A stretch of DNA of 64,000 nucleotides from Methanobacteriota archaeon (GCA_018650285.1 JABIGF010000019.1:3086-67085), one strand, 5' to 3'; numbered from the stretch's first letter, positions 29,713 to 33,275 are shown. The notes: generated from the sequence alone by a model not told the origin. Translations and numbers: made by a program.

Positions 29713-30165
29713 ATGATGAAAAATATAAGAAAAATTGCGATAAAAACAATCGGTAGAATATCGGATAACGGTCCGCCAATCGTTTCAATCAACGGCATCC
29801 TTGGATTCAGGGAGTACACCAGATACGAGAATTCATGGTTCTACATAGGTAGGTCGCCCATTAGTAGATGCATTGTCATTATGCAGGACGACTGGGTTGA
29901 GATTCACAATGTGTGCGTAAATGAGCCTGAAGATAGAAGCAAGGGTCACGGCACTGCTATGATTGCAGATATTAGACAAGCTTTCCCAAACCATCACATC
30001 TGGGTCAACACGGCCGAATGCTCGAGAGCGTTCTGGGAAAAGATGGTCGATAGGGGTCACATTGACTCCATCGAAAATGAATACTGGTGGCCTTGCTGGG
30101 ATACAACCTGCACTATTTGTCACCCGACAAGAACAACAGGAAAAAGGAGGTGTGGCTCATGGTGA
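29713..30165 (+). CDS. GNAT-family N-acetyltransferase
   Basis: VEIHNVCV...RSKGHGTAMI (acetyl-CoA motif A) and SRAFWEKM (motif B); start moved downstream of the tRNAs. Confidence 0.8.
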   Translation: MMKNIRKIAIKTIGRISDNGPPIVSINGILGFREYTRYENSWFYIGRSPISRCIVIMQDDWVEIHNVCVNEPEDRSKGHGTAMIADIRQAFPNHHIWVNTAECSRAFWEKMVDRGHIDSIENEYWWPCWDTTCTICHPTRTTGKRRCGSW

Positions 30166-30893
30166 GACCAAACGACAAAAGTATCATCCCCCCAGATGAT
30201 ATGATAGACCACAACAATGCGAACTTCTCACAGATTGAGAACATCATGACCATCTTTGTTGCCTACAATCAAGTCAACATCCAACAAGGAACACCTTGGG
30301 ATAACTGGCCTGAATGGGAACTTTGCTTGACAGCGATAAATCCAGATATCCACTTTGAAGTTGAGGAGGATTCGAATGAAATCAAAGCCGTAAGAGAGCA
30401 CTGGTTGGCTGTGATGCAGTTCATACACGACTCAGAGCACATCGAGTTCGATGGCTATGCCATCACTGTAAATGGTGTCCATGGGAACACTTTCAACTTC
30501 GTTATCTGCTTTCAAACCGAAATGTGGGGTGACCCTATAATGACAAAAGATGGTGAAGAGGAATGTTTCAGTGGCATTGGATTGGTCCCCATGCCTTTCC
30601 CGCATATCATGCCTAGCGAAATCGGGCATAGCCTTGGGCCCCTTTGGGTGTGCCCAGAACACGTACCAAAGTACGGTGGTGAGCAATTCTATTGTTCAGA
30701 GGGTTCAATTTGCATTAGCAAGGATATTGATGGGGCATTTCCATTAGCACTATACTCCCTACTGAATCTCTGTATTGATGATACTAAAATATGGGCAGAT
30801 GCTTGTGCAAGAGACCTTGAGTTACATGATAATTTGCACAGGATGAATGAAAAATGGCCCGGCGGAATACCGGAAGATTGGGAGTACCAATGA
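30159..30893 (+). CDS. Acidic hypothetical protein
   Basis: GGAGGTG SD before ATG 30159; overlaps the GNAT stop codon. Confidence 0.75.
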   Translation: MVRPNDKSIIPPDDMIDHNNANFSQIENIMTIFVAYNQVNIQQGTPWDNWPEWELCLTAINPDIHFEVEEDSNEIKAVREHWLAVMQFIHDSEHIEFDGYAITVNGVHGNTFNFVICFQTEMWGDPIMTKDGEEECFSGIGLVPMPFPHIMPSEIGHSLGPLWVCPEHVPKYGGEQFYCSEGSICISKDIDGAFPLALYSLLNLCIDDTKIWADACARDLELHDNLHRMNEKWPGGIPEDWEYQ

Positions 30894-30902
30894 GGTGAAA
30901 AA

Positions 30903-31103
30903 ATGTTAGAAAAAGAACTGAAAGAACTGATAATAGCAATGAAAATGTTGATTGATGCGAAAACTGCAAACTTGGCAGTTGAAACTGAATTCGACAAAAT
31001 CAGACTAAAAGATTTTGTCAAGCACGCAGAGAGACAAGGACTCAATATGAATGAAAATGACAACCCTTCGTGGCCAGATGATTTTGAGGAGGACTGGGAA
31101 TGA
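30903..31103 (+). CDS. Small hypothetical protein (66 aa, acidic tail)
   Basis: GAGGTGA SD 5 nt upstream; ATGA overlap with the next gene. Confidence 0.75.
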   Translation: MLEKELKELIIAMKMLIDAKTANLAVETEFDKIRLKDFVKHAERQGLNMNENDNPSWPDDFEEDWE

Positions 31104-31645
31104 GCCTTCTTTGGAAGCCAAACGCGAACGCACCTTTGTGGGATGCTGCAGATGAGGATGAGTCCGACGGGCCATTCTTTGACTACCTTGAGTTGGCGCA
31201 CATCAGGCAATCAGGTCCAACCTGTGTGCCAACTACATTGGCGATGTTGGCTAGAGCCACGGGAGCAAATGTAGAGCCTGAGGATTTCATGCCTCTCATC
31301 AATTCACAATCACCACATTCGTGGTCGAAAGCACTAGCACCCTACGGATTGCAATTGGCGTACTGTAACAACGATTTGAGGAGACTTGAGTACTATATTG
31401 ACGAGCTCACCGATTACGATGACTTGTTCTTGCTGTGCTTCTACTCTCAAGACCCACCTTATGAGCCAGATGAGAATGGGAAATTGTGTACTGCACACAT
31501 AGTGACACTGCACAAAGATAGAATCATTGATACAGCCAAATCGGACCAATATGCAAATGGCAAGGCGAGCGATTATCACAGGCTCGCAAGACAGACGAAG
31601 AGAATCTTCAGAGTGGTTCCGAAGGGACATGCGAGGTGTGTGTGA
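31100..31645 (+). CDS. C39-like (papain-fold) cysteine peptidase
   Basis: IRQSGPTCVPTTLAML (Gln...Cys), AHIVTL (His), RIIDT (Asp). Confidence 0.7.
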   Translation: MSLLWKPNANAPLWDAADEDESDGPFFDYLELAHIRQSGPTCVPTTLAMLARATGANVEPEDFMPLINSQSPHSWSKALAPYGLQLAYCNNDLRRLEYYIDELTDYDDLFLLCFYSQDPPYEPDENGKLCTAHIVTLHKDRIIDTAKSDQYANGKASDYHRLARQTKRIFRVVPKGHARCV

Positions 31646-32985
31646 TGCTATGGAAGGGCAATCACTTATTCTGCAACGTACCGTTGCCGAAAGCCGACGA
31701 TAGGCCTCTCATTGTGTCGCACCCTGGTGCCCACATGAACTACCTCGCATCGTGGAACGTGATGGTCGAACACGGCGAGCCATTCGTGCTCGTTTGTGAT
31801 GACCTTGGACCCGCGTACCCCGACGGATGGTGGGCACAGCACAGCAAAGATGGGATGGAATACTTCGCAAGACTCCAAAACCCACAAGGGGTTGGGCAAG
31901 CCTACAGAAATCCCGACCTATCATTTCAGAATTTGCTGGTGCACAGAGGGTTGGATGCCAACAAAGGAATGGAAGATTTCCCCTTAATTGACATCATGTA
32001 TGTCGATTTCATCGAAATCTTCCTGAAGTACAATGGTGAAGTTGACTGGAGACCAACTTTCATGGCAGCTGCTCCCAAAATGGTGGAGAAGGTCAGAGAT
32101 GGCGGTGTGCTCATCATCGACAGGAAAAACGTGCACGAGGATTACGACCAATGGTTGGAATTCCCTCAAGGCGAATTCGAGGTCTCGCCTGGGATCACGT
32201 TGGAACATGTCGGCAAAGGTGAGTGGCTCATACTCGACATGCCATTGAATGGAGGCGGCAGAGATGAAATCCATGCTGAAGTCTTCAGGGTGTCCAACAG
32301 CAACCCCCCAGGAAATCCCGATGATTTCCTAGCGACTCTAATGAAAGAGAGGAGATTAGCCCCTAAAGATTTGGAGGGTTTCAAGGGAACCTTACCTACA
32401 AGATGGCCAGGGCACCCTACATTGGATGATTACACTGAGAGACTATTCAATCATTATGATCACCCTGACGCCTTCGATAGGCCCGATTATCCAGAACCGC
32501 TGGAGAGTTCTTGGAAGAGTGAAAAGTACGACGAATGGCTACAGTGGTTGATTAACCACCCAGAGTCGTTGAGACCCATTGAGAGAAACGAGAGAATCAT
32601 GCAGATGGGCAGCACAACAGTGAGGTTGGTCCATGGCACCATTTTGGCACATCTCGATTGGTTGCAAACCAAAGACGCGAGTCTCGTGGTGAGAGATGCT
32701 CTAAGGGAGAGTTGTCTTGCAGAGAATCTCTTCTTGGGGAAAAATGCGGCCAATTTACAGCCGTTCATGAGATGGAAGAAACCCATCAGACACATGAGGT
32801 GGTCTGGACCCGATGCCACACCGAATTTGACCAGAGAGTTACTGAAACTTTCGAAGAGTAACGTGATGGCCACCATCTCGCATGGTATTGCAACTTTGGA
32901 AGAACTTGAAGCCGCCCTTACCGACTACGATGGCGAGGTTGAGGAATTGGTGATTTTCCACTTGGATGAGGAGGACTACAGATGA
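31645..32985 (+). CDS. Hypothetical protein with SAM-methyltransferase-like motifs
   Basis: IDIMYVD and KVRDGGVLIID resemble class I MTase strands; GAGGTG SD and TGATG overlap. Confidence 0.5.
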   Translation: MLWKGNHLFCNVPLPKADDRPLIVSHPGAHMNYLASWNVMVEHGEPFVLVCDDLGPAYPDGWWAQHSKDGMEYFARLQNPQGVGQAYRNPDLSFQNLLVHRGLDANKGMEDFPLIDIMYVDFIEIFLKYNGEVDWRPTFMAAAPKMVEKVRDGGVLIIDRKNVHEDYDQWLEFPQGEFEVSPGITLEHVGKGEWLILDMPLNGGGRDEIHAEVFRVSNSNPPGNPDDFLATLMKERRLAPKDLEGFKGTLPTRWPGHPTLDDYTERLFNHYDHPDAFDRPDYPEPLESSWKSEKYDEWLQWLINHPESLRPIERNERIMQMGSTTVRLVHGTILAHLDWLQTKDASLVVRDALRESCLAENLFLGKNAANLQPFMRWKKPIRHMRWSGPDATPNLTRELLKLSKSNVMATISHGIATLEELEAALTDYDGEVEELVIFHLDEEDYR

Positions 32986-33275
32986 GTGACAGCAAGTATC
33001 TGGATGCTTATCTCAAATTGAATGAAGAGCACGGTCAGAACCAGTGGCCCTCAAAGTTGAGGTTGATGGGTGTTGAGAAGTACGATCCAATGTATACCTC
33101 AAGTCATCTGTTTGTCATTTACTTCCCTGAGAAAAAACATGAGGATTTCATCGCTTGGAGACATCACAGATTACAAAATGGCTGGCAAGATGACATCTAT
33201 TGGATGAGTGAAGCCGAATTCAAATATCATTGGCCGATGCTTGCAGGCTTGTTTACGTGGGAGTGGGTGGAATAA
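32982..33275 (+). CDS. Small aromatic-rich hypothetical protein
   Basis: ATGA overlap with the upstream gene; GAGGAGG SD. Confidence 0.7.
   Translation: MSDSKYLDAYLKLNEEHGQNQWPSKLRLMGVEKYDPMYTSSHLFVIYFPEKKHEDFIAWRHHRLQNGWQDDIYWMSEAEFKYHWPMLAGLFTWEWVE

Follow-up and report, generated by a model that had tools for sequence, protein, structure and literature searches.

Why should six consecutive genes spell every one of their arginines with AGA or AGG (AGR) in a genome that otherwise uses the four CGN codons freely? The question is raised by a stretch of 64,000 nucleotides (nt) from a Methanobacteriota archaeon (GCA_018650285.1, JABIGF010000019.1:3086-67085; C22:3086-67085 in the contig numbering used here), which is referred to below as the window. 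The six open reading frames (ORFs), here called the cassette, occupy positions 29,713 to 33,275 of the plus strand. The names borne by its homologues place the host in the order Poseidoniales, among the Marine Group II archaea. We are confident of the narrow claim that CGN has been excluded from these genes through selection related to translation. We further propose that the cassette, two transfer RNA (tRNA) genes for arginine that precede it and a short leader ORF rich in CGN make up an operon that senses CGN decoding, its genes being kept free of CGN so that they can be translated when CGN decoding fails; we put the probability of this whole model at about 0.6.

A recount of the six ORFs found 57 arginine codons, 38 AGA and 19 AGG with no CGN, distributed as 13, 4, 2, 10, 25 and 3 from gene 1 to gene 6, which is exactly the tally given in the initial annotation. 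Its remark that host genes use CGN freely holds for the genome at large: in 1370 long ORFs drawn from the whole assembly (2.1 Mb, 28 contigs) CGN accounts for 63% of the arginine codons and AGR for 37% (CGT 24%, CGC 17%, CGA 17%, CGG 5%, AGA 27%, AGG 9%). At the host AGR share of 0.366 the probability of finding 57 AGR among 57 is 1.4e-25. ORFs free of CGN are correspondingly rare in the genome, with four among the 1242 that have at least eight arginine codons and four among the 1423 that have at least six; three of the four belong to the cassette. The remaining one is an unrelated serine recombinase gene on contig C20 (C20:188619-189419, minus strand, outside the window), all 20 arginine codons of which are AGR. 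Its relatives, three paralogues in the same genome and 13 homologues in related genomes, use a mixture of CGN and AGR. A preference for AGR as a general habit of mobile genes was considered and is ruled out by the homologues of this recombinase, which have 3-17 CGN codons each.

The bias is restricted to the CGN box. The initial annotation had also raised the matter of other codon families and of CpG content in the island; no other family is emptied in the six genes, and CpG is not depleted. The NCG codons are used at 25% (TCG), 15% (CCG), 11% (ACG) and 21% (GCG) in the cassette, as against 7%, 11%, 8% and 12% in the host, and the observed/expected ratio of C|G codon junctions is 0.82 in the cassette and 0.73 in the host. 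Arginine itself makes up 4.8% of the residues encoded by the six genes and 4.7% of those of the host, and the G+C content of the genes ranges from 0.37 to 0.50 in surroundings of about 0.44. Since neither the NCG codons nor the C|G junctions are depleted, a CpG, dinucleotide or compositional bias is excluded as the cause.

Homologous cassettes are present in about 30 other Poseidoniales genomes at protein identities of 25-86%, and they too stay free of CGN. In raw ORF calls from 32 loci, the window included, the cassettes contain 53 CGN and 1101 AGR codons, against 2193 CGN and 574 AGR in the flanking genes of the same loci, where CGN thus makes up 79% of the total and 59-88% at individual loci. 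For a count by family the cassette ORFs were grouped by BLAST and identical nucleotide sequences were removed; the decayed locus L097, the fused C-family ORFs at contig ends (L075, L076), an over-extended ORF of L065 and an over-extended duplicate of window gene 2 were dropped. The resulting 105 non-identical genes have 17 CGN and 1038 AGR codons. Twelve of the 17 fall in N-terminal extensions not shared by the homologues or, with an alternative start following them, at codon 2 or 4, and a truncated ORF (L079) accounts for two more, in its tail; no more than three to five seem genuine.

The alignments of these families show how strictly the choice is kept. In the conserved arginine columns AGR fills 216 of 216 cells in family C (window gene 4), 107 of 107 in family D (gene 5), 28 of 28 in family A (gene 2) and 30 of 30 in the GNAT-like family (gene 1). 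Conserved leucine columns in the same alignments are mixed with respect to the two leucine boxes, TTR and CTN numbering 114 and 129 in family C and 117 and 142 in family D. Because AGA to CGA and AGG to CGG are single synonymous changes, and because divergence in family D reaches 25-28% protein identity, the absence of CGN requires purifying selection; this selection is of long standing and acts on the CGN box alone. The initial annotation had named selection for independence from CGN decoding as one of two explanations. That view is strengthened by the CGN-free state of divergent homologues in CGN-rich genomes, by the specificity for one box and by the constant company of a CGN-rich leader and of tRNA-Arg(NCG) genes described below. 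It was also right that the cassette is independent of the tRNAs that precede it, there being no CGN codon among the 57.

One of the homologous cassettes, L097 (G043:C5), is decayed, having in-frame TGA stops in its family C gene and a split family D gene. It was considered as a copy in which codon use had relaxed, and this was dropped, its 12 apparent CGN codons having come from ORFs in the wrong frame; it furnishes no evidence either way. Aligned in frame to an intact relative, to which it is 87-94% identical, it shows no change from AGR to CGN.

The two tRNA genes in front of gene 1 read the very codons that the cassette excludes, and both are on the plus strand. The first is a tRNA-Arg(UCG) at 29495..29568, found with ARAGORN and with Rfam (53.7 bits), which reads CGA and CGG. 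The second is a tRNA-Arg(GCG) at 29587..29659, reading CGU and CGC, which was matched by Rfam (41.4 bits) and not called by ARAGORN; its anticodon loop, CTGCGAC, gives GCG when read from the sequence, and ARAGORN calls its homologues in loci L064 and L065 as tRNA-Arg(gcg). This second tRNA has an atypical D-arm, in which a GTGA/TCAC pairing overlaps the end of the acceptor stem, and its CCA end is encoded. Complementary sequences containing GCCGGC surround the first tRNA, TGCCGGCACCTT before it (29484-29494) and CACCTTCGCCGGCA after it (29562-29575), and could lengthen the acceptor stem in the tRNA precursor.

Both genes are extra copies beside a separate housekeeping set of UCG, GCG, UCU and CCU. 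Elsewhere in the same genome there are tRNA-Arg genes with UCG on contig C5, a different UCG on C6, GCG on C19 and UCU on C11, and two with CCU. The complete genome of a relative (G038) has 40 Rfam tRNA matches, which were typed with ARAGORN and include CCU, UCU, an intron-containing UCG and GCG, together with the cassette-linked UCG. The tRNA-Arg(UCG) of the window differs from the housekeeping one on C5, its D-loop being 2 nt shorter, and the linked tRNAs as a whole form a type of their own with this shorter D-loop, with compensatory stem changes between clades and with anticodons that are always NCG. The differing tRNA-Arg(UCG) on C6, the third in this genome, stands near the start of its contig (C6:458-534), directly after the 3' end of another tRNA, and could belong to a tRNA cluster or to foreign DNA in the assembly.

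The linkage of such tRNAs to the cassette is general. Gene 5 homologues were found in 15 of 61 related genomes, and 14 of their loci were examined; 11 (L011-L021) have a tRNA-Arg(UCG) upstream on the same strand, often followed by one with GCG or ACG, and the other three are short contigs. A second set, for which one genome per species was scanned, provided 35 named loci. In 31 of these the 3' end of a same-strand tRNA-Arg(NCG) is found 1.3-2.9 kb upstream of the gene 5 homologue, and the four without a tRNA have only 126-1696 nt of upstream sequence. Loci L073 and L074 depart from this spacing in that they possess a second UCG gene, within the cassette, which ends 18-61 nt from the gene 5 homologue. 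In these two and in L012 a pair of cassette genes encloses a tRNA-Arg(UCG), the spacers in L073 measuring 8-18 nt, and it follows from this arrangement that the tRNAs and the cassette mRNAs are most likely co-transcribed as a single transcript. In some cassettes a tRNA-Arg with the anticodon ACG takes the place of the GCG species (L073:3139-3213, L074:3097-3171, L089:1673-1746). A tRNA-Arg with A34 is unusual in the Archaea, which are not known to possess an A-to-I deaminase acting on A34. A tRNA-like RNA was also sought on the downstream side of the cassette, and neither positions 28800-33700 of the window nor five related loci gave a match at E <= 1-5.

Wherever enough upstream sequence is present the layout is the same, beginning with a leader ORF of 15-30 codons in which CGN is clustered, continuing with one or two additional tRNA-Arg genes (UCG, GCG or ACG) and ending in a CGN-free cassette of four to six genes. 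The leader of the window is an ORF of 30 codons at 29334..29426 on the plus strand (MVIIMCQEKFIRGGRLRRRVRFNECTFEAL), with homologues in L064 and L065; its stop codon is 68 nt upstream of the first tRNA. Five of its six arginine codons (CGG CGT CGC AGA CGA CGA) are CGN. Roughly 35 nt upstream of its ATG, on the same strand, is the sequence TTTTTATA (29293..29300), a possible archaeal TATA box to judge from its letters, and a second TATATA is found at 29320-29325.

In the first set of loci a leader ORF of 15-30 codons stands directly upstream of the first tRNA in 12 of 12, the window included. Most of these leaders have a Shine-Dalgarno-like GGTGA or GGAGG 6-9 nt before the ATG, and their 3-5 CGN codons are clustered at the C-terminal end, except in the window leader, where nine codons follow the arginine run. 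The second set comprises 31 upstream regions, 30 of them distinct, and an automatic rule gave a candidate leader in 28. The rule missed the window and L065; six regions, including these two, were read by eye, and leaders were seen. The leaders of the window, L064 and L065 are homologous and have 5-6 CGN codons, and those of L080, L087 and L094, for which the rule had picked another small ORF, are of the common MRGP...R.L(R/C)(H/L)RS type. Four leaders of that type have just two CGN codons. The leader peptides are otherwise of various types (e.g. MRGPKFNILFSLMRTLRHRS, MPQQLFWRDCNRCQSQFRWVR, MTEKHSWKYRYRRYFRSRPIR, MTNYIWSNHFKRRRS and MMDEHNSVRNDTKRPSRHRR), and what is common to all is the arginine run, spelled in CGN. 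Since this run is all that they share, they bear the signature of a regulatory leader rather than of a functional peptide. The usual trio within it, CGG, CGT and CGC, covers the codons of both linked tRNA species.

The CGN codons of the leader also lie in RNA that could form hairpins. In the Poseidoniaceae-type leader the CGN codons and the stop codon fall in a hairpin with a conserved downstream sequence, and over 17 sequences 87.5% of the cells are paired, against 20-38% in slid controls, with one A-U/G-C covarying pair; this hairpin was drawn by eye from the sequences, and a structure so drawn tends to beat slid controls for that reason alone. In the window-type leader a hairpin over the arginine run can be written as TCGTCT-TCGC-AGACGA, and its arms are TCGACA/TGTCGA in L064, both having changed.

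A leader rich in CGN, spare tRNAs for the CGN codons and genes from which CGN has been removed are linked here, and the simplest model for all three is a feedback device for CGN decoding. We infer that the leader is translated and that it would serve as a sensor of ribosome speed on CGN codons. Were the CGN-reading tRNAs scarce, uncharged or damaged, ribosomes would stall in the leader, the RNA around the CGN codons would refold, and more transcript would reach the tRNA genes and the cassette. The spare tRNAs would then restore CGN decoding, and the cassette proteins would still be made during the shortage, their mRNAs needing only the AGR readers (UCU, CCU). The trigger could be a limitation of arginine, under which the heavily used CGN readers would in theory be the first to become uncharged, or a loss of tRNA through attack by a virus or a toxin. 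In Poseidoniaceae hosts CGN makes up about 80-88% of the arginine codons in the flanking genes and AGR about 15-20%, and the CGN readers should be starvation-sensitive there because CGN carries so large a share of the arginine demand.

A more far-reaching version of this model, which we offer tentatively and with the odds somewhat against it, would have the operon act as a mobile alarm for translation capacity, an archaeal attenuator that times the reading of CGN and switches on variant tRNAs and CGN-free effectors. If true, this would be the first case of a leader-peptide attenuator in the Archaea and of one that controls tRNA genes, as well as the first operon family to exclude a codon box by design. 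In the literature searched, the coverage of which left out most subscription journals, we found no account of this operon, of a leader ORF before tRNA genes, or of the exclusion of a codon box by an operon family. Synonymous codons are usually seen as a matter of efficiency; here a whole box is excluded through divergence to 25% identity, and tRNA genes for the excluded box share one unit with a sensor-like leader rich in that box. The model predicts that the cassette proteins are made just when a part of the genetic code is unreadable, and it raises the questions of whether cells can measure the decoding of a single codon box, whether ribosome-mediated attenuation occurs in the Archaea, and whether tRNA genes come under such feedback.

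Several points weigh against CGN sensing. The consensus structure calculated with RNAalifold is weak (-13 kcal/mol), with a covariation term near 0. A terminator/antiterminator pair was not identified in the leader regions; in the L012/L073 type only 17 nt separate the end of the leader from the tRNA, too few for a classical terminator hairpin. AGA or AGG is present in some leaders. AGR is not rare in this host (37%), and the argument from robustness to starvation is weaker here than in the Poseidoniaceae. Nothing links the cassette proteins to translation or to arginine. Leader-peptide attenuation is not known to be established in the Archaea. The RNA evidence consists of four contigs of 151 nt from two RNA-Seq libraries, 100% identical to the window within 30139-31089, which do not show transcription; parts left uncovered by these contigs are uninformative. 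The shares of sequence words in the runs were small (0.05-0.07), and contigs of 90-99% identity came from two further libraries that are probably of DNA.

Other explanations of the codon pattern have to be set beside CGN sensing. The initial annotation had thought a recent transfer from an AGR-biased donor the simpler of its two options, and a mutational or dinucleotide bias that has yet to drift to host usage can be taken with it. The unit is inserted relative to genomes of the same genus, and the recombinase of contig C20, another foreign-looking gene, is also purely AGR (20/20); however, the homologues of that recombinase are mixed, with the 3-17 CGN codons each noted above, and homologues of the cassette at 25-86% identity in some 30 CGN-rich genomes are still CGN-free. 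The only lineage with homologues of the cassette, the Poseidoniales, has 59-88% CGN in the flanking genes, and the tRNA-linked homologues are not at the background level of CGN, with 17 CGN to 1038 AGR. The G+C range of 0.37-0.50 brackets the host value of 0.44 and there is no CpG depletion, conserved leucine columns have been randomised between TTR and CTN whereas the arginine columns have not, and such relatives of gene 5 and gene 2 as are named are solely marine-archaeal. Import from an AGR-biased donor is, on these comparisons, already contradicted, and we regard it as scarcely credible. A throttle that ties output to the AGR readers (UCU, CCU), with the avoidance of CGN as a by-product, would have a parallel in the TTA codons of Streptomyces, which depend on bldA. 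It would suit the Poseidoniaceae hosts, where AGR, being the minority box at about 15-20% of flanking arginine codons, would be sensitive to the supply of those tRNAs. Yet what accompanies the cassette, tRNAs that read CGN and a leader rich in it, has no relation to AGR, and in the present host AGR amounts to 37% of arginine codons, so that such a throttle seems quite improbable.

A third explanation, that of self-immunity, is in our judgement unlikely. It supposes that the cassette proteins inactivate, modify or consume CGN-reading tRNA-Arg or Arg-tRNA and that coding with AGR alone protects their own synthesis; the proteins might be a toxin, a host shut-off device or a tRNA-dependent arginyl transferase, and the linked tRNAs substrates, decoys or resistant replacements. 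Strict avoidance of CGN and linkage to tRNA-Arg(NCG) are predicted by this explanation as well. It is in keeping with the distinct structural type of the linked tRNAs, with parts that resemble those of conflict systems (a papain-like peptidase, a macrodomain-like fold and a GNAT-like protein) and with the mobility and patchy distribution of the unit, and GNAT toxins that acetylate aminoacyl-tRNA exist. On the other hand, no match was obtained to a known tRNA nuclease, a tRNA acetyltransferase toxin, the ATE1/Fem transferases or a PADLOC model, and most cassette types are without the GNAT-like gene. Self-immunity alone, moreover, leaves the CGN-rich leader upstream of the tRNAs unexplained.

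The known kinds of system on which the operon would be a variation are leader-peptide sensing and starvation-robust codon choice. The bacterial attenuators (trp, his, leu, thr, pheST) have a short upstream ORF dense in regulatory codons whose synonymous choice matters; according to PMC1183508, the synonymous codons used in such leaders are those read by the tRNAs that starvation affects most, and isoacceptors in low demand stay charged. Here too the leader codons lie within RNA capable of alternative pairings. In contrast, the host is an archaeon, and downstream are tRNA genes for those very codons and an unrelated cassette rather than biosynthetic enzymes or a synthetase. What is sensed would be one codon box (CGN) and not an amino acid, and no terminator/antiterminator pair was identified. 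In the sinR gene of Bacillus subtilis it is the TCN, and not the AGY, serine codons that sense serine starvation (PMC3862929). There, and in selective charging as outlined in PMC1183508, two boxes of a six-codon amino acid behave differently under shortage and codon choice exploits the difference, which is the likeness to the present case. The differences are that the exclusion here is absolute, at about 0 in 1000 codons, that it is conserved across an operon family, and that the unit physically couples it to the tRNA genes of the excluded box and to a CGN-enriched leader.

A mobile unit with variant tRNAs of its own also recalls the phage-encoded tRNAs for codon compensation or for escape from tRNA-targeting defences (cf. 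PMC10264068). Unlike what is seen with those, the genes linked to the tRNAs never use the codons that these read, which is the opposite of compensation, and a compensating role is ruled out by the counts (0 CGN in 57 arginine codons here and 17 in 1055 across the homologues). The unit contains no virus genes. A virus origin was considered and rejected: the family C profile gave eight pattern matches on viral contigs, none of which was confirmed as a homologue, and the PHROGs scan gave one match at E 0.051.

The whole unit, consisting of an AT-rich promoter region, the leader ORF, the two tRNA-Arg genes and the six AGR-only genes, extends over 29093..33438. It sits between the stop codon of a gene for a protein of 758 amino acids (plus strand) and that of dnaJ (minus strand). 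Among 11 dnaJ loci from genomes of the same genus the homologue of the 758-amino-acid gene ends beside dnaJ in nine, and none has a tRNA there; the seven junctions inspected are free of tRNA genes, and about 25-35 bp separate the two stop codons. The junctions of the relatives being empty, positions 29093-33438 represent one insertion of 4.3 kb between convergent genes. At the same spot locus L106 (G011:C23) has a different and unrelated insert, and the spot may be an insertion hot spot. In genomes G013 and G014 the junction is empty and a family C gene is found on other contigs, from which it follows that the unit occupies different places within one genus, or that the assemblies mix strains.

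Of 301 species genomes of the Poseidoniales, 79 have family C, with 12 of 149 in the family to which the window belongs and 66 of 149 in the sister family; these counts are lower bounds, the genomes being incomplete. The cassette proteins are accordingly known from about one genome in four in a group that ranks among the most abundant archaea of the ocean. In one genus of the Poseidoniaceae the flanks are syntenic across species, and they are made up of unrelated housekeeping genes (GDP-mannose dehydratase, GST, a wyosine radical-SAM enzyme and a phosphate transporter). Relatives of gene 5 and gene 2 bear, where they are named, only marine-archaeal names, and the Pfam scan found no integrase within the unit. 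We take the cassette to be the coding part of a conserved, horizontally mobile operon of Marine Group II archaea.

The cassette proteins received no trusted family assignment in scans against Pfam, PHROGs, PADLOC and NCBIfam. For nine proteins the PADLOC defence models gave no match at E <= 0.1, and NCBIfam gave nothing useful; a known anti-phage defence system was thus rejected, no PADLOC model having matched. All six genes lie on the plus strand, and their arginine codons are those already tallied.

Gene 4 (31100..31645, 181 amino acids, 10 arginines, all AGR) encodes the most conserved protein of the cassette, with a mean column identity of 71%, and 15 of 15 sequences have residues C42 and H133. 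We consider it a probable cysteine peptidase or amidase of the papain-like (C39-like) kind, in which C42 and H133 would be the catalytic residues. The likeness lies in an invariant Cys and His in the expected order and in weak Pfam matches over the region of the catalytic Cys, namely Peptidase_C39 at 18.4 bits (cut-off 22) and C39_2 at 14.1 (cut-off 24). As against the C39 peptidases, its matches are below the Pfam cut-offs, profile searches found no solved relative (the family C and family A profiles gave nothing below E 0.07 against the PDB sequences), and there is neither an ABC transporter nor a conserved double-glycine substrate. The Atlas provided leads only: 32% of one cluster carries DUF261, and 15% of a second carries Peptidase_C39.

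Gene 5 (31636..32985, 449 amino acids, family D; 25 arginines, all AGR) has an AlphaFold2 (AF2) model with a predicted local distance difference test (pLDDT) score of 80, in which two parts resemble known folds. Its N-terminal part appears from the model to have a class I methyltransferase fold: Foldseek matched it to TPMT, halide methyltransferases, MnmC and Trm1 at E 5e-5 to 1e-3, and with VIA-align residues 11-222 gave Z 7.2-8.5 against methyltransferases. In the family alignment strand 1 is followed by H-P-(G/A)-A and strand 2 by an acidic residue; no Pfam methyltransferase match was obtained. The C-terminal part is predicted to be macrodomain-like, residues 315-449 giving Z 7.3-8.0 with Af1521, PARP14, macroH2A and the rubella macrodomain over 113-121 residues at a root-mean-square deviation of about 3.2 A, on a domain taken from the full-length model and with the tool's warning that values of Z below 8 may stem from a common arrangement.

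Gene 2 (30159..30893, 244 amino acids, family A; four arginines, all AGR; AF2 model with pLDDT 85) shows weak UBC/E2/UEV/RWD-like matches in VIA-align. The best is to a chain of the BubCD-BubB-BubA complex (9eav_D, Z 4.7), and about 17 of the 50 rows listed are E2, UEV or RWD folds at Z 3-4; scores of 3-4.7 may, by the rating of the tool, reflect no more than a common arrangement. Foldseek returned nothing at E <= 0.001. A search of the family A profile against 1.84 billion representatives gave 73 matches, the distant ones without an informative Pfam domain. The predicted UBC-like fold is to be taken as a lead only. The Bub/Bil ubiquitination-like operons (10.1101/2024.11.21.623953) resemble the cassette in that gene 2 finds its best fold match in a chain of the Bub complex and in the adjacent cysteine peptidase. 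They differ in that Z is only 3-4.7 and that neither an E1 adenylation domain nor a ubiquitin-like protein was found in the scans of the cassette proteins. A ubiquitin-like partner was looked for among families B and E and rejected, these being helical or acidic and without a Gly-Gly end.

The other three genes are smaller. Gene 1 (29713..30165, 150 amino acids) is GNAT-like with a C-terminal Cys/His motif, its match to Pfam Acetyltransf_1 (E 0.045) being below the cut-off. Only some cassette types have this accessory gene, and its five homologues have 61 AGR codons and no CGN, in line with its own 13 arginines, all AGR. Gene 3 (30903..31103, 66 amino acids; two arginines, both AGR) encodes a small helical protein with an acidic-aromatic tail and occupies the slot held by family B in other cassettes. 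The acidic-aromatic tails of families A and B are alike (EDWEYQ, EEDWE, SKEWL; in the window at 30870-30893 and 31080-31103) and may represent a common docking motif. Gene 6 (32982..33275, 97 amino acids, family E) has three arginines, all AGR, and its homologues in L002 and L013 each have two AGR codons and no CGN. Overlapping its stop codon is an ORF of 27 codons (33274-33357) with one CGC, which may be no gene; if real, it would hold the sole CGN codon of the inserted unit downstream of the tRNAs.

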